This document shows positions 3,582 through 37,423 of a stretch of 64,000 bases of DNA, piece after piece; the stretch's first letter is position 1; every line of letters starts with the position of its first letter. Under the pieces are notes generated by a model. That model worked only from the letters and a program-made list of their open reading frames with translations, was not told the DNA's origin and did not search any database. The stretch is from Bacilli bacterium (GTDB lineage Bacteria; Bacillota_I; Bacilli_A; RFN20; CAG-826): positions 18,131-82,130 of the forward strand of contig JAEDIE010000001.1 of assembly GCA_016296775.1 (NCBI GenBank), in the 5' to 3' direction. A program made the position numbers and the translations under genes.

Positions 3582-4217
3582 ATGAAAAGAAAAAGAATTA
3601 TTAATTTAATCGTTCACGTTGCAATTTTTGGAGCATTGGCCATTATTTTATATTGTGTTCCGTATCTTCAATTTTCACTTCCATTTTGTCCATCTTTTTT
3701 AAAAATTCATTTCGATGAAATACCTATTCTATTAGCGGGTTATGCATTTGGACCATTAGAAGCCATATTAATTATCATATTAAAAGCTTTATTTAAGCTT
3801 ATTCAAGATATACCTGAAACAGGTGGAATTGGAGTATTAGCTGATGTCATTTATTCTTCAGCTTTTATACTTCCAGCTGTTTTTATCTATAAAAAACATA
3901 AAAATTTAAAAGGAGCAGTTATTTCTCTTTTAGTAGGAGTTTTATCTCAGTTAATTGTAAGTTGTGTAATAGGATTATATTTAATTTACCCATTATATGG
4001 TCTATATTTTTATCCTCAAGCTAGTAGTTATCAAGAAGCAATGGAAGTTGTAGGACAATTATTTACTCCGTTTGATAATTCTATTAAAAGTGCTACAGAT
4101 CCAAAAATTATGTATCAATTTTTGCTTCCTTTCAATTTAATTAAAGATGTAATTGTAGCTTCAGTGTGTTTTGTTTGTTATAAACCTTTAAAAATGTTAA
4201 TTGAAAGAAAAATGTAA
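3582..4217 (+). CDS. ribU: Riboflavin transporter RibU (ECF transporter S component). Start reassigned to the ATG after the riboswitch.
   Basis: Small protein of about 210 aa with about 6 TM segments, lying downstream of an FMN riboswitch. The ORF-track start at 3555 lies inside the riboswitch. Confidence 0.75.
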   Translation: MKRKRIINLIVHVAIFGALAIILYCVPYLQFSLPFCPSFLKIHFDEIPILLAGYAFGPLEAILIIILKALFKLIQDIPETGGIGVLADVIYSSAFILPAVFIYKKHKNLKGAVISLLVGVLSQLIVSCVIGLYLIYPLYGLYFYPQASSYQEAMEVVGQLFTPFDNSIKSATDPKIMYQFLLPFNLIKDVIVASVCFVCYKPLKMLIERKM

Positions 4218-4276
4218 GAATTTAAGCAAAATAAAAGACTATTCGAAGGAATAGTCAGTTATCAATTAAAATGAAA

Positions 4277-4450
4277 TTATTTTGAAATAGCACCAACTGG
4301 GCAATTTGCAATGGCTTCATCAGCACTAGCTTCATCTAAATCACCGATGACTCTAGCTTTACCTTCATCATCAAATTCAAATGCACTATCGTATGTTCCT
4401 ACGCAAACACCGCAACCAATGCAGCTTTCAGCATCAACTGTAACTCTCAT
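4277..4450 (-). CDS. fer: 4Fe-4S ferredoxin (57 aa). Not present in the ORF track.
   Basis: The reverse-strand translation is MRVTVDAESCIGCGVCVGTYDSAFEFDDEGKARVIGDLDEASADEAIANCPVGAISK. It has a CxxCxxC...CP ferredoxin motif and is preceded by the RBS ggaggaattaat. Confidence 0.8.
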   Translation of the reverse strand: MRVTVDAESCIGCGVCVGTYDSAFEFDDEGKARVIGDLDEASADEAIANCPVGAISK

Positions 4451-4610
4451 ATTAATTCCTCCAATTAATTAAAATATACCATTTTAGAAATAAAAATCAA
4501 CATTAAAATGAATGGTTAAACTTTAATAATAATTCTAGAAAATAATTGCTATTTTGATATTAAAATATTCGCTTTTAGATTATAATATAAGTAATAGATG
4601 GAGGATTCAC

Positions 4611-5162
4611 ATGAAATATCAAATAATTGGTAAGAATATTCAAGTAACTGAAGGCATCTCTTCTGCAATTAAAAGAAAAGTGTCAAAAATGGACAAATAT
4701 TTTGAAAATCCAGACCAAGTTGAATGTAGAGCAGTTGTTAGAAGTTATAAAAACGAAGCTAAAGTCGAAATTACTTTAAGAAATAACGATATTATTTTTA
4801 GAGCTGAAGTTAAAGATCCTGATTTGTATGCAGCTATTGATTTTGCTATTGACAAATTAGAAGGTCAAATGAGAAAATTAAAGACCAAATTAGAGAGAAG
4901 ACATAATAAAAATGGTATCGGAAGATCTATTATTTATTCAGAAATTGAAGAACCATTTAATGTAAGTGAAGATGAAATTGTTAAAACCAAATCATATAAT
5001 TTAAAACCTATTACAATGGAAGAAGCCATTATTGAAATGGAAGCTATAGGTCATGATTTTTATGTTTATTTAGATACTGATGATGAAAAGATTTCAGTTC
5101 TTTATAAGAGAAAAGAAGGGGGATACGGTTTAATTCAAGCTGAAAATAAAGTAGTTTTATAG
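4611..5162 (+). CDS. hpf: Ribosome hibernation promoting factor (long form, YvyD-type)
   Basis: N-terminal sigma-54-modulation/S30EA domain MKYQIIGKNIQVTEG plus a C-terminal dimerisation domain. RBS ggagga lies 6 nt upstream of the ATG at 4611. Confidence 0.85.
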   Translation: MKYQIIGKNIQVTEGISSAIKRKVSKMDKYFENPDQVECRAVVRSYKNEAKVEITLRNNDIIFRAEVKDPDLYAAIDFAIDKLEGQMRKLKTKLERRHNKNGIGRSIIYSEIEEPFNVSEDEIVKTKSYNLKPITMEEAIIEMEAIGHDFYVYLDTDDEKISVLYKRKEGGYGLIQAENKVVL

Positions 5163-5179
5163 AATTAAACTAGTAGTTG

Positions 5180-6010
5180 ATGAAGATTATTGCAACCGAC
5201 TTGGACGGTACTTTGTTTTACCCAAAAGATAAAGTAGAAATGATTTCTGCTAATAATCTTTTTTTCCTACAAAATTTTATTGATGATGGAAATAAGGTAG
5301 TTATTATTTCTGGAAGAAGCATCGATTATGGAAAAAAGGTTATTAAAAAAATTGGGAGAGATTGTTCAGTTATTGGATTTAATGGGACATGTGTTTTTAG
5401 TGAAGGAAAATATATCGAAAAAAAGACCATGCCTAATGATTTAGTAAAAGAATTTATTGATGATACATTCCAAACTTTTAAAAATTTTGGTGTCTTTTTA
5501 ATGACTGATAAAGGTGTATCAGTTCATTTAAAAACTAAATCAAAATTTATTAGATGGTTCGCCAATTTATATTACAAATCTCAAAAGATTTATGCAGAAC
5601 AATTTTCAAGCTTAGAAAGCGATTATGAAAGCGAATTAGCTAATGGAAATATATACAAGGTAATGCTATTTTTTGGAATTAGTAAAAGAAAAATGAAAGC
5701 AGCTAGTGAAGCTAATAAAATATTACGTAATTCCTTTGATAATTTTGAATGTTCATGGTCTGGACCAGTAATTGAAGTCACATTAAAAGGATGCTCTAAA
5801 GCTAATGCTTTAAAGGACTTTATTAAGTTAAAAGGCTATTCAAAAGAAGATGTTTATGTTGTTGGAGATAGTGGAAACGATATCTCAATGTTTAAAGATT
5901 TTTATGAAAATAGTTTTTGTATGGAGCATTCCCCAAGCAGTATTAAAAAATATGCTAGATATACTATTCATAAATTTGAAGATTTATCTAGATATATTTA
6001 TAAAAAATAG
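5180..6010 (+). CDS. Cof-type HAD-IIB phosphatase
   Basis: DxD motif IIATDLDGTLF. C-terminal VGDSGNDISM motif. Confidence 0.8.
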   Translation: MKIIATDLDGTLFYPKDKVEMISANNLFFLQNFIDDGNKVVIISGRSIDYGKKVIKKIGRDCSVIGFNGTCVFSEGKYIEKKTMPNDLVKEFIDDTFQTFKNFGVFLMTDKGVSVHLKTKSKFIRWFANLYYKSQKIYAEQFSSLESDYESELANGNIYKVMLFFGISKRKMKAASEANKILRNSFDNFECSWSGPVIEVTLKGCSKANALKDFIKLKGYSKEDVYVVGDSGNDISMFKDFYENSFCMEHSPSSIKKYARYTIHKFEDLSRYIYKK

Positions 6011-6044: not shown

Positions 6045-6899
6045 ATGAATACTATTAGTCGTGTTATTGTTTCTTTAGTTTATTACAATTCACTTGTTAG
6101 AGACACTCTTGAATACACAATTAACAAAGAAACATATGAAACAAATTTCTATGATTACAAACAAAATGGAATAATCAACGAAATTAAACTTGAAACACCT
6201 TTAAAAATCTTTATGGACAAGAATGGTGAAAAAGGTGAAGAATTAAGAAAGAAACTTGAAAAATTTGGTGAAGATTTCTACAGCGAAAAATCAACTGTTG
6301 TTAGAAAAGCTATTGATGGATTAAGAGTTGATCATGCTCAAAATATTAGAGTTTTTGAAAGTGTTTGTCCAATCCATGAAGAATTAAATTCAATTGTTCA
6401 ATTACATGTTAATTTTGCAAGAGAAAACAATCAATTAGAAGAAAATATTCTTAAATTAGTCTCAGCTGATGAAAGATATTATAGAGCTGTTGCTTTCTTA
6501 TCTTTAAGTGGTGAATTATTCCGTCAATTTGATGAATACAACAAAGCAAGAAGAGAAGCAAATGGTGAAAAGACACCTCAATCAAATTTCATCGAACAAG
6601 ATTTAAGCAAAGTTGTTGGTTTATTAGGCCTTGTTAGACAACATGCCATCTGTAATGATGAAATGTATACCGATACAGTCGATGCTTTATGGAAAGCAAT
6701 CGAAATTATGAACGGCAAGAGACAAATTCCTCAAGGAAAAACATTTGCTGATGTAATTAACGAAGCAAATGCTAAGATTGGAACATTTGTTCGTGATAGT
6801 GAAGAAGCTTGGAAATCAATTTATCCAGCTATGATCAACGAACTTGTTGCTGACAATCAAAAAGGCGCTCAAGAAGCTACCGAACCAAAAGCTGAATAA
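6045..6899 (+). CDS. Hypothetical soluble protein, 284 aa; no family recognised
   Basis: Long ORF with RBS aaggag. Its codon usage resembles that of well-expressed genes. I recognise no motif in it. Confidence 0.6.
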   Translation: MNTISRVIVSLVYYNSLVRDTLEYTINKETYETNFYDYKQNGIINEIKLETPLKIFMDKNGEKGEELRKKLEKFGEDFYSEKSTVVRKAIDGLRVDHAQNIRVFESVCPIHEELNSIVQLHVNFARENNQLEENILKLVSADERYYRAVAFLSLSGELFRQFDEYNKARREANGEKTPQSNFIEQDLSKVVGLLGLVRQHAICNDEMYTDTVDALWKAIEIMNGKRQIPQGKTFADVINEANAKIGTFVRDSEEAWKSIYPAMINELVADNQKGAQEATEPKAE

Positions 6900-6919
6900 T
6901 TATTTAAAACAGGTAAACT

Positions 6920-7282
6920 ATGAAATTTTTTAAAGGAAAATCAAATGGTCAAATTGCTTCATTTATAATCGGAATCTTTTTGATGTTTTCTGGTATTCTT
7001 TTATTAGTCTTTGGATTAATTGGAGATTACGGACCAAGAAATAATCCTTTTACAGAAGCAAACGAATCAATTGCAGCAAGTGTTAAATTTGGTTTAAGTT
7101 TAACTTGGATAGGTGTAATTGTTCTTCTTGTTGGCAGTATTACTTTTGCTTTAAGCTTAAATTTCATGGCTAAAGCTACTGAAAGAGAAGCTGAAAAAGA
7201 AGTTAGAAGAAAACAACGACTTGAGGTTATTAATCAATCTAAAGTTGTTGATGTAGAAAACGTTAATTCTACTGCTAAATAA
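6920..7282 (+). CDS. Small membrane protein (2 TM) with a charged C-terminal tail
   Basis: Two hydrophobic helices followed by the EREAEKEVRRKQR tail. Confidence 0.55.
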   Translation: MKFFKGKSNGQIASFIIGIFLMFSGILLLVFGLIGDYGPRNNPFTEANESIAASVKFGLSLTWIGVIVLLVGSITFALSLNFMAKATEREAEKEVRRKQRLEVINQSKVVDVENVNSTAK

Positions 7283-7284
7283 TT

Positions 7285-7310
7285 AATGGCCTCTAAAAAA
7301 GAGGCCATTT
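7285..7310. terminator. Rho-independent terminator, probably bidirectional
   Basis: Perfect 10-bp stem aatggcctct / agaggccatt with an A6 loop. It lies between a plus-strand gene and the minus-strand tRNA-Ser. Confidence 0.6.
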
Positions 7311-7362
7311 AAATTACAATAAAAAAAGACTTATAATTAAATATAAGCCATTAAAATTAAAT

Positions 7363-7451
7363 TGGCGGAGAAAGAGGGATTTGAACCCTCGCGGCTTTGA
7401 CACCCTATGAGCTTTCCAAGCCCACCCCTTCAGCCTCTTGGGTATTTCTCC
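7363..7451 (-). tRNA. tRNA-Ser (anticodon GGA), class II with a long variable arm
   Basis: The reverse complement reads ggagaaa...anticodon loop ttGGAaa...long variable arm...ggttcaaatccc...tttctccgCCA. 89 nt in total. Confidence 0.85.
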
Positions 7452-7497
7452 AGCGTTAATAATTATAACAAGAATTTAAGGAGTTGTCACATTAAAT

Positions 7498-8466
7498 ATG
7501 AAAGAAATTGTAATAACTAATGAATTTTCTAATCAAAGAGTAGATAAGTATGTTCGTAAATACTTAAATGAAGCTCCTTTAAGTTTTATATATAAACTTT
7601 TTAGAAAAAAAGATGTAAAAGTAAATAATCATTGGGTAAAAGAAAATTATATTCTTCAAACTAATGATGTTTTAAGAATTTTTGTAAGTGATGCTCAACT
7701 TGAAGAATTTAATAAGCCAAAAGAGGTAAAGAATATTTCTTTTAAAGATCTAAATATTATTTATGAAGATAATAATTTATTAATTGTTAATAAACCAAAA
7801 GGAATTCTTGTTCATGGAGATAGTAGTGAAAAAAGATTAACTTTAACTAATAAAGTTCAATCTTATATTATGTCAAAAAATGAACAAACTGACTTTTTGT
7901 GTTCTCCAATTCATCGTCTTGATAGAAACACTTCTGGCTTAGTAATTTTTGCTAAAAATTTTAAAACCAGCCAGTATTTCATGGGGTTATTGAAAGAAAA
8001 AGAAAAAATTGAAAAGTATTATTTATGTTTAGTAGTTGGAAAAACTACTAAATCTGGAACCGTTAATATTCCTCTATATAAAGATGATGAAAGAGGAATG
8101 GTTTTTAAAGGAAATATTAATAACGGTGCAAAAGAAGCCATAACAAAATATGAGCTTATTGCAAGCAATAATGATTTTAGTTTACTTAGTGTTCAAATTT
8201 TAACAGGAAGAACTCATCAAATTAGAGCTCATTTTAAAGAAATTAATCATCCTCTTGTAGGTGATGGAAAATATGGTGATTTTAAAATTAATAAGGGATT
8301 TAATAGTGATTTTAACTATGATTCACAATTTTTACATGCCTATAAAATTAAATTTAATAATCTAGAAGGAGATTATAAATATTTATCTAATAAAGAATTT
8401 GTTTCTCCATTAAATGATAAAGAAAAAGAGATATTGAATAAGCTCAATATCCCTATGAAATCCTAA
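7498..8466 (+). CDS. RluA-family pseudouridine synthase with an S4 domain (RluD/YlyB-like)
   Basis: Catalytic motif HRLDRNTSGLVIFAKN. N-terminal S4-like region. Confidence 0.8.
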   Translation: MKEIVITNEFSNQRVDKYVRKYLNEAPLSFIYKLFRKKDVKVNNHWVKENYILQTNDVLRIFVSDAQLEEFNKPKEVKNISFKDLNIIYEDNNLLIVNKPKGILVHGDSSEKRLTLTNKVQSYIMSKNEQTDFLCSPIHRLDRNTSGLVIFAKNFKTSQYFMGLLKEKEKIEKYYLCLVVGKTTKSGTVNIPLYKDDERGMVFKGNINNGAKEAITKYELIASNNDFSLLSVQILTGRTHQIRAHFKEINHPLVGDGKYGDFKINKGFNSDFNYDSQFLHAYKIKFNNLEGDYKYLSNKEFVSPLNDKEKEILNKLNIPMKS

Positions 8467-29597: not shown

Positions 29598-29624
29598 TTA
29601 GCACTCACCTATTGCAAGTGCTAA
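29598..29624 (+). promoter_or_regulatory. CIRCE element (HrcA operator) TTAGCACTC-N9-AAGTGCTAA
   Basis: Matches the CIRCE consensus TTAGCACTC-N9-GAGTGCTAA at 17 of 18 inverted-repeat positions. It overlaps a sigma-A-like promoter: TTGCAA at 29612, a 17-nt spacer, and TATAAT at 29635. Confidence 0.7.
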
Positions 29625-31711: not shown

Positions 31712-33328
31712 ATGGAAAAGAAACCGATGAAATTTATTTTTGTTACGGGCGGAGTTGTGTCTAGCCTTGGAAAAGGAATTAGTGCTGCAAGCATTGGAAG
31801 ATTATTAAAAAGAAGAGGTTTAAATATCTTCTCTATGAAATTAGATCCATATTTAAATGTTGATCCAGGTACAATGTCTCCTTATCAACATGGTGAAGTT
31901 TTTGTAACTCAAGATGGAGCTGAAACAGATCTTGATTTAGGACATTATGAAAGAATTATTAATACCTCTTTAACCAAAGAAAGTAGTGTTACAAGCGGAA
32001 AAGTATATTCAACAGTCATCGAAAAAGAAAGAAGAGGAGCTTATTTAGGAGCTACTGTTCAAATTATTCCTCATATTACTAATGAAATTAAGAAAAGATT
32101 AATCGATGGATTTAACGCAAAAGGTGATACAGATGTTTGTATTGTTGAAATTGGTGGAACTGTTGGTGATATTGAATCTCTTCCATTTTTAGAAGCAATT
32201 AGACAAATGAGAAGGGAATTAGGTTATGAAAATACTTTCTTTGTTCATAACACTTTAGTTCCTTACTTAAAAACTACTGGTGAAATTAAAACCAAACCAA
32301 CTCAACATAGTGTTAAAGAAATTACCGGTTTAGGAATTCAACCAGATGCTTTACTTCTTAGAAGTGAAGTTAAAGTAGATAAAAAGAGTAGACAAAAAGT
32401 AGCTTTATTCTGTAACGTTTCAGATGAAGCTGTTATTAGTGTTGAAGATGTAGATATTATTTACGAAGTAGCTTTAAATTTACAAAAACAACATTTAGAT
32501 GATTTAATTGTTAATCATTTAAGATTGAATTGTAATGAAAAAGCTAATATGGATGATTGGATTTCTTTAATTAGAAAAATTAAAAATATCAAAAAAGAAG
32601 TTACAATTGGCTTAGTTGGAAAATATGTTTCTTTACATGATGCTTATATTTCAGTTTATGAATCATTAAAATTTGCTGGATATAAATTCGATACTAAAAT
32701 TAACGTTAAATGGATAAATAGTGAAAATTTAACTTTAGAAAATTACAAAGAAGAATTAGGCGGCTGTAAGGGCATTGTTGTTCCAGGAGGTTTTGGAGTT
32801 AGAGGAACTGATGGAAAGATTTTAGCTGCTAAATATTGTAGAGAAAACAATGTTCCTTATTTAGGATTATGCTTAGGAATGCAAATAGCTTTAATTGAAT
32901 TTGCTAACAATTGTTTGCATTTAGAAAAAGCTAATTCAACAGAATTTGATAGTGAAACACCATATAAAATCATCGATTACCTTCCAGATCAATATAAAGG
33001 AATCAAGATGGGTGGAACAATGAGACTTGGAAATTATGAATGTAAATTATTAAGTGGAACTAAAACTTATTCTTTATATAATTCACCATTAATTGTTGAA
33101 AGACATCGTCATAGATATGAATTTAATAATGAATATAAAGCATTATTTGAAGAAAATGGAGTTATATTCAGTGGAATAAATCCTCAAACTAATCTTTGTG
33201 AGATTATTGAACTTAAAGATCATCCTTTCTTTATTGCATGTCAATTCCATCCTGAATTTAAATCAAGACCACTTGAACCACATCCATTATTTGTTGGTTT
33301 AGTTGAGGCTAGTATTAAGCATGAATAA
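31712..33328 (+). CDS. pyrG: CTP synthase
   Basis: N-terminal synthase domain [11 protein letters not shown]-terminal glutamine amidotransferase (GATase) domain GLCLGMQ...H..E. 538 aa. Confidence 0.95.
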
Positions 33329-34276: not shown

Positions 34277-35875
34277 ATGGCTAAGGGATTTTTTAAGAAA
34301 ATTTTAGAGACATTTCTTTCTATAATTCCAATGGTTGTTATTATTACCATTATTTTTTTAATTAGTTATTTTGTTCCTTCATTTGGAGGAATTTTGAATA
34401 ATGATAAAGTACCTTTTATTAGTTTAAATTCATATATTCCATTTTTGATTTGTAGCTTAACTTTAGTTGTTGGTTCAAGTTTATTTCAACTTGGTGCTGA
34501 TAATGCTTTAAGTAAGGTTGGTCAAGAGATAGGTTCTCATTTAACTAAGAAAAAGAACATTGTTTTATTAGTTGTTTTAACAATTGCTTTAGGTTTGTTA
34601 ATAACTTTTGCTGAACCTGATTTAACTGTATTTAGCGATATCATCGGAAAACAAATTGATACAACTTTGGGAACTTGGATTGTTAAACTTGCTGCTGGAA
34701 TTGGTGTAGGTATCTTTTTAGCAATAGGAATTGTTAGAATTATTTTTCAAAAATCATTTAAGATTATTATTTTAATATCGTATGGGTTGATATTTGCTTT
34801 AGGTTGCTTATTTGGACCTGTAGCAGGAGATGCTTTCCTTTCAATAAGTTTTGATACAAGTGCTGTTACAACAGGTCCAGCTACTGTTCCTTTTGTTATT
34901 GCTTTTGGAGCAAGTGTAGCTAGTGCTAGAGGTGGTAAAGATTCATCTTCAGACTCATTTGGTTTAAGTGGACTTATGTCTTTAGGACCAGTAATTAGTA
35001 TGTTAATCCTTTGTTTATTTAAACAACCAGAAAGCAATATTTTAGCAATAGAAGTTCATAATTGGTATGAACAAATTGTTCAAGATAATATCTTTATTGA
35101 AATGATTTTTGAGGTACTTTTAGGTGTAGGTCCTTTATTTATTTTCTTTATTATTTATAATTTTATTTTCTTAAAATTAAAAAAAGAGAAACTTATTAAT
35201 ATTTTAATTGGATTTGGACTTACTGCAATTGGTTTATATATTTTCTTACTTAGTGCATCTATCGGATTTAAGGGATTAGCTGAAGAATTAGGTAGAAATA
35301 TTGCTTCTAATCCAAGTTATTATTATTTATTTATTATAATTGGATTGCTAACTGGAATAATTATTGTTTTAGGTGAACCTTCAATTCAAATATTAACTTC
35401 TCAAGTTGAAGAAATAAGTGCTGGTATAATAAAAAAGAAAACAATGATTATTACCTTAGCAATTGGTGTAGGTTTAGCTATTACTTTAGAATTAGCTCGT
35501 AATGTATTCTTTAATGGATTTTCAAGTTTTTACTTATTTATTCCTTTATATTTATTAAGTATTTTCTTAATGTTATTTGTTCCTGATATTTATGCTTCAA
35601 TTGCTTTTGATAGTGGAGGAATAGCTTCAGGAACAATTTCAGTATGTTTTGTTCTTCCTTTTGTAATTGGAATGAGTAAAGAAATTAATCATGTTTCTAA
35701 TTCATTTGGAATTATTGGAATGGTAAGTTGTATGCCAATTTTATGTATTGAAATGTTAGGTATTTCAAGTAAAATTCAATCTAATATTATTCAAAAGAGA
35801 GCAAGAAAGAGCTTTGTTGGTTACGAGGATGCTCAAATTATTCACTTTATGGAGTTAGAATATGAGGATAAGTAA
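34277..35875 (+). CDS. Internally duplicated polytopic membrane protein, DUF1538-like. Candidate transporter.
   Basis: Two homologous halves: ITFAEPDLTVFSD in the first and IVLGEPSIQILTS in the second, each with about 6 TM segments. 532 aa. Confidence 0.55.
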   Translation: MAKGFFKKILETFLSIIPMVVIITIIFLISYFVPSFGGILNNDKVPFISLNSYIPFLICSLTLVVGSSLFQLGADNALSKVGQEIGSHLTKKKNIVLLVVLTIALGLLITFAEPDLTVFSDIIGKQIDTTLGTWIVKLAAGIGVGIFLAIGIVRIIFQKSFKIIILISYGLIFALGCLFGPVAGDAFLSISFDTSAVTTGPATVPFVIAFGASVASARGGKDSSSDSFGLSGLMSLGPVISMLILCLFKQPESNILAIEVHNWYEQIVQDNIFIEMIFEVLLGVGPLFIFFIIYNFIFLKLKKEKLINILIGFGLTAIGLYIFLLSASIGFKGLAEELGRNIASNPSYYYLFIIIGLLTGIIIVLGEPSIQILTSQVEEISAGIIKKKTMIITLAIGVGLAITLELARNVFFNGFSSFYLFIPLYLLSIFLMLFVPDIYASIAFDSGGIASGTISVCFVLPFVIGMSKEINHVSNSFGIIGMVSCMPILCIEMLGISSKIQSNIIQKRARKSFVGYEDAQIIHFMELEYEDK

Positions 35876-36293
35876 AAAAATAAAAGAAAAGGGTAATAAA
35901 AAAAGTGTAGAAAGCAAGCCTTCTTTTGAAAGCGAAAATAAAATTGAAAGATTAAAATTGCTTGTTATTATTGTTAATCGTAATCAAGGTCAATTTTTTG
36001 TATCAAGATTTTTAGAAAATGATATTAGTGCAGTTTTTGAAGTATATGGAAAAGGAACTGCTCCAAAAGAAATATATGAACTTGTTGGACTAAATGATTC
36101 TAAAAAAGATTTAGTATTAGGAATTATTAAAGAATCAGATTTAGATAAATATATGAAAATCATTAATGAAAGATTTTCATTTAGCCCTACATCAAAAGGA
36201 GTAGCATTTACTATTAAAATTAGTTCTATGGCTGGTGTAATTATGTATAAGTTCTTAACTAATAATAAGGAGAGGATTAAAAATGGGAAATAA
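35862..36293 (+). CDS. P-II-like small signal-transduction protein (first paralogue, with an N-terminal lysine-rich extension)
   Basis: Core LKLLVIIVNRNQGQFFVSRF resembles the beta-alpha-beta start of P-II/DarA folds. Overlaps the upstream stop. Confidence 0.4.
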   Translation: MRISKKIKEKGNKKSVESKPSFESENKIERLKLLVIIVNRNQGQFFVSRFLENDISAVFEVYGKGTAPKEIYELVGLNDSKKDLVLGIIKESDLDKYMKIINERFSFSPTSKGVAFTIKISSMAGVIMYKFLTNNKERIKNGK

Positions 36294-36612
36294 AGGTGAA
36301 TTAATTGTAGCGATTATTAATAGAGGATATAGCGATTTAGTAATGGAAGCAGCTAAAAAAGCTGGAGCTAGAGGTGGAACAATTTTTAATGCTCATGGAA
36401 CTGGAAATAAAGAAATTGAAGAATATTTTGGTGTTCCTATTCAACCTGAAAAAGAGATGGTTTTTATAATTGTCGATAAATCAATTAAAGATAATGTTTT
36501 GTTGAATATTTATAAAGATGCAGGATTAGAAACAAAAGGTCAAGGAATTGTTTTTTCTCTTCCTGTTGATGATATGGTTGGTGTTACTTTAAATGAAGAA
36601 GAAACTAAATAG
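36283..36612 (+). CDS. P-II/DarA-like small signal-transduction protein (109 aa)
   Basis: ELIVAIINRGYSDLVMEAAKKAGARGGTIFNAHGTG ... GQGIVFSLPVDD parallels the P-II/DarA (YaaQ) pattern. Confidence 0.55.
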   Translation: MGNKGELIVAIINRGYSDLVMEAAKKAGARGGTIFNAHGTGNKEIEEYFGVPIQPEKEMVFIIVDKSIKDNVLLNIYKDAGLETKGQGIVFSLPVDDMVGVTLNEEETK

Positions 36613-37423
36613 AATAGTAAATCTTCTTAACTATATTTTTATTAATATTAAATAATAAACTTACTGCTAAAATGGCATCTTTAGGTGTCATTTTATTTTC
36701 GATTAATAATTTTAATTTATCTTTTATTTGTTCTAAAGATATTGTTTCTTCGTCACTAAAATTACCTTCAACAATTAAAACAATTTCTCCAATAATCTCT
36801 CTTTTTGATTCTAAAATTTCTTCTAATGAAATTCTAATAAATTCTTCATGAATCTTAGTTAATTCTCTAGCAATACAAATATTTCTATTTCCAAAAACAT
36901 TAAATAAATCATTCAAAGTATCATAAATTCTATGAGGAGCCTCGTAAAAAACTATAGTATTTCCCACCTCTTTTAATTGTTCTAACTCTTTTATTCTTTC
37001 ACTTTGTTTAGATTTTAAAAATCCATAAAATAAGAATTTGGAAGGATCAATTCCACTTCCAACAAGAGCATTCAAAAATGCATTTGGTCCTGATAAAGGA
37101 ACAATTTTTATATCGTATTTTAAGCATTCTTTTACTAAATTATATCCAGGATCACTAATACAAGGATAACCAGCATCAGATAAATAACCTACTGTTTTCC
37201 CACTTAAAATTTCATTTACTATATTAATTGAGGCTTCAATTTCGTTATGTTCATGACATGAAATTGTTTTCTTTTTTATATTTAATAGATTAAGTAATTT
37301 ATTTGTATTTCTTGTATCTTCACAAGCTAAAAAATCACAAATAGAAATAGTTTCTAATACACGTGGAGAAACTTCTTTTAAATTTCCAATTGGAGAAGGT
37401 ATTAAATATAATGATCCAATCAT
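36605..37423 (-). CDS. rsmI: 16S rRNA (cytidine1402-2'-O)-methyltransferase RsmI
   Basis: Tetrapyrrole-methylase fold. N-terminus LYLIPSPIGN...ACEDTR. Confidence 0.85.
   Translation of the reverse strand: MIGSLYLIPSPIGNLKEVSPRVLETISICDFLACEDTRNTNKLLNLLNIKKKTISCHEHNEIEASINIVNEILSGKTVGYLSDAGYPCISDPGYNLVKECLKYDIKIVPLSGPNAFLNALVGSGIDPSKFLFYGFLKSKQSERIKELEQLKEVGNTIVFYEAPHRIYDTLNDLFNVFGNRNICIARELTKIHEEFIRISLEEILESKREIIGEIVLIVEGNFSDEETISLEQIKDKLKLLIENKMTPKDAILAVSLLFNINKNIVKKIYYSI

Follow-up and report, generated by a model that had tools for sequence, protein, structure and literature searches.

Few signal processors in biology are as widespread as the PII proteins, and several of them act directly on membrane transporters: the ammonium channel AmtB is plugged by GlnK, and SbtA, a cyanobacterial bicarbonate transporter, is locked by SbtB in its AMP-bound state (PMC10710835). 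A 2023 review counts five transporters under direct PII control, AmtB, Amt1, Nrt, Urt and SbtA, and DUF1538 proteins are not among them (PMC10710835). Experimental work on the DUF1538 family concerns only UmpAB of Halomonas zhaodongensis, reported as a membrane hetero-dimer of two DUF1538 proteins with Na+(Li+,K+)/H+ antiport activity in Escherichia coli KNabc; the clone ended at umpB, and a PII gene was not mentioned (PMC5484666). The full-text literature on DUF1538, PF07556 and UmpAB yielded this 2017 study and passing mentions, and no link between DUF1538 and PII. Here we describe a three-gene unit in a 64,000-nucleotide (nt) window of contig JAEDIE010000001.1 from a Bacilli bacterium (the window is the whole stretch of DNA that was analysed, and all coordinates are positions in it), in which a DUF1538 membrane protein is encoded directly ahead of two small proteins of the PII superfamily, called PII-A and PII-B below. 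DUF1538 and PII genes are adjacent at nearly all loci that could be read, and in places they are fused. We lean, with a modest degree of confidence, toward the view that the PII proteins form a cap that binds the DUF1538 transporter and controls it, and our confidence in any particular ligand class or substrate is lower. DUF1538 would thus be a further, strictly conserved pairing partner of PII. The transporter family, the dedicated PII subtype and, in Bacillota, the putative heteromeric pair would be new, whereas the logic of a PII protein gating a transporter is known and the adjacency of the genes is visible in public annotation. The unit is laid out as follows.

34277..35875, + strand: DUF1538 membrane protein of 532 amino acids (aa) with two DUF1538 repeats, that is, fused UmpA-like and UmpB-like halves (Pfam PF07556, two stretches)
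35851..35854, + strand: GGAG ribosome-binding site for PII-A, within the 3' end of the membrane protein gene (sequence read)
35862..36293, + strand: PII-A, a divergent PII-like protein of 143 aa (BLASTP, hhalign, AlphaFold2, Foldseek)
36268..36275, + strand: AGGAGAGG, ribosome-binding site for PII-B, within the 3' end of PII-A (sequence read)
36283..36612, + strand: PII-B, a PII-family protein of the DUF1538-associated subtype, 109 aa (Pfam PF00543)
36605..36612, no strand: 8-nt overlap of the convergent stop regions of PII-B and rsmI, end of the unit (sequence read)

As in GlnK-AmtB, a gene of the PII family accompanies that of a membrane transport protein, and this linkage is conserved across phyla; by analogy a cytoplasmic cap with T-loops blocking the transporter would be expected (PMC10710835). 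The locus differs from GlnK-AmtB in having a putative DUF1538 inverted repeat instead of Amt and two PII paralogues instead of one, in PII-B, which has neither the tyrosine for uridylylation nor Q39 nor the basic residues that bind phosphate, and in the absence of a nitrogen-metabolism context. The best functional analogy may be SbtB-SbtA, where a non-canonical PII-like protein is likewise dedicated to one co-transcribed secondary transporter and regulation involves adenine nucleotides, not 2-oxoglutarate (PMC10710835); the differences lie in another transporter family, another PII subfamily and the presumed heteromeric pairing of A with B. With UmpAB, the window protein shares its Pfam family, and the two UmpAB subunits, each predicted to have seven transmembrane helices, correspond to its halves; unlike UmpAB, it is encoded by one fused gene instead of two, and the similarity is far below the equivalog cut-offs. 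Another case of two adjacent paralogous PII proteins is NifI1/NifI2, which act jointly on nitrogenase and were reportedly the subject of work by Dodsworth and Leigh in 2006. The pair in the window also consists of two neighbouring, diverged PII paralogues that presumably form a hetero-oligomer, but its target would be a membrane protein instead of nitrogenase, and nif genes are absent. Finally, PII-A and PII-B are small PII-fold proteins of Gram-positive bacteria, as DarA/PstA and PotN are, and they differ from DarA/PstA in lacking a DarA family match and in loop lengths that are canonical, not swapped.

Linkage and fusion of DUF1538 and PII genes

An earlier note on this DNA had proposed three co-transcribed open reading frames (ORFs) between 34277 and 36612, and all three are exactly where it placed them. 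Co-transcription is supported by the layout: the DUF1538 and PII-A genes overlap by 14 nt (35862-35875), PII-A and PII-B overlap by 11 nt (36283-36293), and no terminator-like hairpin was found from pyrG at 31712 to the end of the PII-B gene. The overlaps, together with the internal ribosome-binding sites GGAG and AGGAGAGG, suggest that the three genes are translationally coupled. The minus-strand rsmI gene does overlap the PII-B stop, as the note had said, by 8 nt. Its description of the module as a compact insertion did not survive, because the order pyrG, rluD-like, module, rsmI, ricT, holB, tmk is kept in six divergent Bacilli loci (L002, L004, L005, L014, L019 and L020), with no more than 38-66% identity between their DUF1538 proteins and the window protein, and the base composition and skew of the module are continuous with the flanks. 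Members of the family occur in gut Bacilli with small genomes, in which core housekeeping genes surround the module.

Linkage was followed in 160 fetched loci, 80 from a genome scan (different species) and 80 from a metagenome scan seeded with an alphaproteobacterial DUF1538 subunit. PII genes stand directly after DUF1538 in about 145 of the 147 loci having enough downstream sequence, and the conservation of the gene triplet, which the earlier note had suggested checking, is thereby confirmed. In the genome set, 59 loci have DUF1538 followed by A-type and B-type PII genes and 14 have DUF1538 followed by one gene with both PII domains; five end with the contig after the first PII gene, and two have no downstream room. 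The metagenome set is more varied in architecture: a fused DUF1538 gene is followed by a fused two-domain PII gene in 40 loci and by two separate PII genes in one, and a split DUF1538 pair is followed by one PII gene in 14, by two PII genes in four (one of which, L130, resembles a frameshifted fused form) and by a fused two-domain PII gene in three. Every resolvable fused DUF1538 gene (114 of 114) has two PII domains encoded directly after it. Annotated replicons of Alphaproteobacteria and Clostridia show the same arrangements, with two DUF1538 genes and one "P-II family nitrogen regulator" on Methylocystis and Chelativorans plasmids and a fused DUF1538 gene with a 222-aa two-domain PII in Peptoclostridium. 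A third conserved gene family was not found near the module in these loci; the next commonest clusters were antisense shadow ORFs or lineage-specific neighbours.

Two loci are worth separate mention. The sole roomy metagenome locus clearly without PII (L099:202-1197) carries a truncated 175-aa DUF1538 ORF followed by an 85-aa RelE/ParE-like (toxin-like) ORF, and it may be a disrupted module. In a Candidatus Scatosoma metagenome-assembled genome (L056:3659-8432), the module occurs twice and inverted, at 3659-6006 (+) and 6085-8432 (-); the two copies have identical hidden Markov model scores, and the palindrome may be genuine or may have arisen during assembly.

A homologue search of 1.84 billion representatives gave 4,910 DUF1538 relatives, making this a sizeable family of about 4,900 representatives at 50% identity, and domains were inspected in the best 150 of them. 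Fusions of DUF1538 with PII were found in at least six cluster representatives, and the PII domain is C-terminal in every case. One of them, P0033 (654 aa), which comes from two independent samples, consists of two DUF1538 domains, a tail motif, a linker of about 30 residues and an A-type PII domain, and a separate P-II gene comes after it. Among the same best 150 of 4,910, P0378 (720 aa) carries all four domains in one polypeptide, and P0376, P0379, P0382 and P0403 have one C-terminal PII-like domain each. The locus L165:3001-5329 is also listed among the natural DUF1538-PII fusions. Five further proteins, P0276, P0279, P0283, P0311 and P0350, bear C-terminal extensions of 110-160 aa that matched neither Pfam nor the PII models. 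As Rosetta-stone cases, the fusions are the strongest argument that PII would contact the cytoplasmic C-terminal side of the transporter: a physical complex is suggested because the PII domains are fused at the C-terminus, which the lysine plus arginine (K+R) bias places in the cytoplasm. Conserved co-encoding and fusion thus make a transporter-PII complex the natural reading of the transport module that the earlier note had envisaged, and the fusion series offers testable predictions on which domains touch.

It may also be that the PII-like proteins are obligate constitutive subunits and not a ligand switch. They would then cap the transporter for assembly or stability, or belong to the transport machinery itself. 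Linkage near 100%, covalent fusion up to a single four-domain polypeptide and translational coupling of the genes would all be expected of such subunits. We consider this explanation rather unlikely, since UmpAB alone was reported to be active in E. coli with no PII gene on the clone (PMC5484666), and since amtB-glnK is also a conserved pair with a 1:1 interaction, yet GlnK is a reversible regulator (PMC10710835). The pocket residues of the small proteins, described below, bear on it as well.

The DUF1538 membrane protein

The 532-aa protein matched Pfam DUF1538 (PF07556) in two stretches with 321.4 bits (cut-off 22.6, E 2.6e-96), and its N and C halves are 25% identical to each other (BLASTP E 3e-9), which verifies the internal duplication claimed by the earlier note. 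In NCBIfam, the N half best matched UmpA and the C half UmpB, with 98.5 bits against an equivalog cut-off of 490 for UmpA and 80 bits against 500 for UmpB (NF041627 and NF041628). Judged by its sequence, the protein is a member of the same superfamily as UmpA/UmpB and not an orthologue. True UmpAB orthologues were also not found among 20 split-pair subunits, none of which approached the equivalog cut-offs. The earlier note had called the module uncharacterised and had named assignment to a transporter family of known substrate and known regulation as a result that would speak against it. Only half of that result is at hand: a substrate, though not a mode of regulation, has been proposed for the distant pair UmpAB, for which Na+(Li+,K+)/H+ antiport was reported (PMC5484666). 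"Uncharacterised" therefore stands for the regulation and has to be qualified for the substrate.

The AlphaFold2 model, built with 118 homologues, is of high confidence, with a predicted local distance difference test (pLDDT) score of 90.4 and a predicted template modelling (pTM) score of 0.88. It has about seven membrane-spanning elements per half, two of which are broken helices, and not about six transmembrane segments per half as the earlier note had estimated. The helix breaks carry the residues that are conserved best in the family: in the N half these are A-E113-P-D and F-D193-x-x-x-V-T-T-G-P, and in the C half E367-P and F-D445-S-G-G-x-A-S-G. In the 118 homologues, the first half is rich in K+R at its N-terminus and in its loops 2-3 and 4-5, the corresponding loops of the second half have low counts, so that the bias is reversed, and the C-tail is basic. 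Read by the positive-inside rule, this bias suggests that the two halves form an antiparallel (inverted) 7+7 helix repeat with the N-terminus inside, the linker outside and the C-terminus inside. The parts of the protein are then the following.

34277..35020, + strand: N-terminal repeat, residues 1-248, putatively N-in/C-out, with a conserved helix break at E113-P114 and the motif D193 / VTTGP (helix map, K+R bias, invariant columns)
35021..35089, + strand: acidic inter-repeat linker, residues 249-271, putatively extracellular (mean of 3.4 D+E vs 0.9 K+R in 118 sequences)
35090..35815, + strand: C-terminal repeat, residues 272-513, putatively N-out/C-in, with a conserved helix break at E367-P368 and the motif D445 / SGGxASG (helix map, reversed K+R bias, conserved columns)
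35828..35848, + strand: cytoplasmic C-tail motif D-A-Q-I-I-H-F, residues 518-524, candidate PII docking peptide (conservation)

In the tail, D518, Q520, I521, I522 and F524 are at least 90% conserved, and the pLDDT is low (47-64). A looser form of the tail, an acidic residue plus [IV][IV]x[FLMY], is general among Bacillota fused forms, and the motif is missing from the alphaproteobacterial subunits and from Peptoclostridium. In P0033 the tail motif runs directly into the fused A-type PII domain.

No solved structural relative of the model was found in Foldseek (best E 0.016, TM scores of at most 0.2). That no solved transporter fold matched is compatible with a different role, in which the DUF1538 protein would mainly be a membrane sensor or anchor that sequesters PII proteins or releases them toward other cytoplasmic targets; PII proteins often have multiple targets, and when AmtB sequesters GlnK at the membrane, this is a signalling step in its own right (PMC10710835). 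We find this role improbable, since the conserved intramembrane acidic and glycine motifs at the helix breaks are typical of ion-coupled transporters, fusion of PII to the membrane protein would prevent its release, the neighbourhood holds no third conserved partner, and UmpAB has transport activity (PMC5484666).

The two PII-like proteins

PII-B matched the Pfam P-II family (PF00543) with 41.8 bits (cut-off 25), and its family profile matched 26 solved PII sequences at E<=0.01. The motifs ELIVAIINRGY, GGTIFNAHGTG and GQGIVFSLPVDD, which the earlier note had quoted for the small proteins, are present and are all located in PII-B. The subtype signature is GARGGT ... QPEKE ... GQGIxFSLPV. In an alignment to the PII protein of Mycobacterium tuberculosis, G27, T29, G35, K58, G87 and G89 are kept, and in its own numbering the pocket backbone of PII-B comprises G31-G32-T33, G39, K57 and G86-x-G88. 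The residues R38, Q39, K90, R101, R103 and Y51 of the M. tuberculosis protein are replaced and the T-loop is five residues shorter, so that PII-B lacks the canonical phosphate and 2-oxoglutarate residues and the uridylylation tyrosine. Across 141 B-type domains, G15, A29, G31, G32, T33, K57 and G100 are at least 95% conserved. Proteins more than 90% identical to PII-B are annotated under Candidatus Onthovivens or "Mollicutes bacterium", which marks the source of the window as a low-GC, uncultured gut bacterium of the Bacilli.

Because PII-B passes the Pfam P-II threshold and public annotation calls such proteins "P-II family nitrogen regulator", it could be taken for an ordinary nitrogen regulator of the GlnB/GlnK kind that is next to DUF1538 by chance. 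The markers of canonical GlnB/GlnK proteins are the nucleotide-binding motif TGxxGDGKI, Q39, K58 and Y51 (PMC6516651). In PII-B, TGxxGDGKI is replaced by LETKGQGIV, Q39 by K43 and Y51 by I53, and only K58 (as K57) and two glycines are left of these features. With no amtB, glnA or nif gene nearby and the DUF1538 adjacency kept in about 145 loci, we give hardly any credence to an incidental neighbour.

PII-A is more divergent and did not match Pfam P-II at E<=0.1, although 10 of 33 of its relatives did at E<=0.01. The Pfam assignment of all three proteins that the earlier note had proposed thus succeeded for the DUF1538 protein and PII-B and gave no match for PII-A, whose fold came from AlphaFold2 and Foldseek. 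PII-A matched PII-B with a BLASTP E of 8e-6, and the two family profiles aligned in hhalign with 99% probability and E 2.5e-18. Its AlphaFold2 core has the order b1-a1-b2-(loop)-b3-a2-b4 with pLDDT >90, and the whole protein comprises a disordered K-rich N-terminus (residues 1-30), the PII core (31-119) and one additional helix at the C-terminus (120-140). Foldseek at E<=1e-3 paired the model with 75 chains from solved structures of PII or PII-like proteins, with TM scores of about 0.66; the top match was GlnK1 (2j9d, E 1.6e-5), and PotN and PstA (4d3h) were also among the matches. On sequence and model, PII-A is a degenerate paralogue of the PII superfamily: the GARGGT strand motif is gone, the lysine equivalent to K58 is kept, and the G-K-G loop is kept at the family level. 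With type-specific models, the single alphaproteobacterial PII proteins are B-type (103-105 bits with the B model vs 41 with the A model), and from this we take B to be the ancestral PII partner and A a degenerating duplicate. The first Peptoclostridium PII domain is intermediate between the A and B models. The best solved match of both family profiles is chain H of PDB entry 9p1x, a 105-aa protein with a short T-loop that is labelled "P-II family nitrogen regulatory protein" and has 12 chains in the entry.

These features also bear on the explanation that the small proteins are obligate subunits. Half of the pocket motifs are gone from PII-A, which would agree with it, but the Gly, Thr and Lys pocket residues of PII-B are invariant from Alphaproteobacteria to Bacillota, which is hard to explain without a ligand.

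The earlier note had likened the small proteins to both P-II and DarA (YaaQ). The likeness to P-II holds, as both have the PII fold, and the likeness to DarA does not, given the absence of a family match, the loop lengths and the lack of a GGFL motif. Receptors of cyclic di-AMP (c-di-AMP) of the DarA/PstA type would suit the host, a member of Bacillota, in which c-di-AMP signalling is common; PstA was one of the Foldseek matches of PII-A, and a PII-like transporter regulator, SbtB, is reported to perceive c-di-AMP (PMC8654305). Neither small protein, however, matched the DarA family in Pfam at E<=0.1, and the best sequence and fold matches of both were PII proteins of the GlnB/GlnK type. Their alpha2-beta4 loop is short and their T-loop region longer, the opposite of PstA (PMC6516651), the GGFL motif is in neither sequence, and B-type partners also occur in Alphaproteobacteria; we therefore regard receptors of this type as very improbable. 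That c-di-AMP could be the ligand of a pocket of canonical type is a different matter and may be entertained by analogy with SbtB (PMC8654305). A Borrelia "PII-like" lead was discarded, as it concerns YitT/DUF2179 and is unrelated.

A putative PII-gated transport module and its surroundings

The arrangement that we favour can be outlined as follows. The three gene products would form one membrane complex, in which the DUF1538 protein is a secondary transporter of two homologous, oppositely oriented 7-helix repeats, whose broken helices carry the conserved acidic and glycine-rich motifs (E113-P and D193; E367-P and D445). The substrates would most likely be monovalent cations exchanged for protons, as suggested by remote homology to UmpAB; a machine-learning study places DUF1538 among the features predictive of growth pH, beside K+ and Na+ transporters (PMC13255231). 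A heteromer of PII-A and PII-B would make up the cytoplasmic cap. PII-B would be the ancestral and ligand-competent partner, with the ligand in the inter-subunit pockets, and PII-A, which has lost the GGT side of the pocket, would probably be an adaptor held near the C-tail of the transporter. We speculate that the likeliest ligand is an adenine nucleotide or some messenger related to one, and that its binding would change the conserved short T-loops and thereby open or block transport, as GlnK does on AmtB and SbtB on SbtA. If the ligand and the substrate are identified, the module would show how ion or pH homeostasis is coupled to the energy or messenger state of these bacteria. It would then also provide a new transporter fold and put right the public name "nitrogen regulator", which is misleading.

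Several points weigh against this arrangement. The transfer of a substrate from UmpAB is weak, because the equivalog scores are far below the cut-offs; the laboratory that screened for UmpAB has reportedly assigned Na+/H+ antiport to members of several unrelated families, its assay may be permissive, and the substrate is best taken as provisional. Binding, ligand and transport are proposals drawn from sequence for the window protein and its close relatives. An obligate structural subunit would account for linkage near 100% and for covalent fusion as well as a reversible regulator does, and a single trimer does not readily accommodate the two-domain PII fusions. The topology is derived from the positive-inside rule only and is to that extent provisional. 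The canonical phosphate-binding arginines and lysine are missing from PII-B, and nucleotide binding is thus not assured. A clue to the substrate from a riboswitch or leader RNA did not emerge either: the Rfam scan of the window at E<=0.1 gave no such element, and upstream of DUF1538 in 45 loci the Rfam matches were tRNA and tmRNA genes and one opposite-strand T-box only.

A more far-reaching reading, which we put forward tentatively, is that DUF1538 and its dedicated PII subtype form an ancient and so far unrecognised holo-complex of transporter and regulator, extending from Alphaproteobacteria to Bacillota. Its antiparallel 7+7 fold would be absent from the PDB, in Bacillota it would contain an obligate heteromer of a ligand-competent and a degenerate PII protein, and its ligand would be a new signal, neither ATP/2-oxoglutarate nor c-di-AMP. 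If true, PII signalling would gain a new branch, and the known transporter folds would be joined by a new one.

Around the module, the promoter scan was uninformative in this AT-rich DNA, with 33 sites against 39 expected. Past the module, the only terminator-like hairpin spans 36668-36695 (+) and falls within the coding sequence of rsmI, which is on the minus strand. The GC skew changes sign and the cumulative skew peaks at about 36000-37000, exactly where gene orientation flips from plus to minus, and this probably reflects gene-strand bias only. The mechanically called ORF starts of htpG (TTG at 29612) and of the rluD-like gene (TTG at 33303, with a 26-nt overlap with pyrG) look over-extended, and internal methionines (MKETKEF... 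and MNKNYKQ..., respectively) are more plausible starts.

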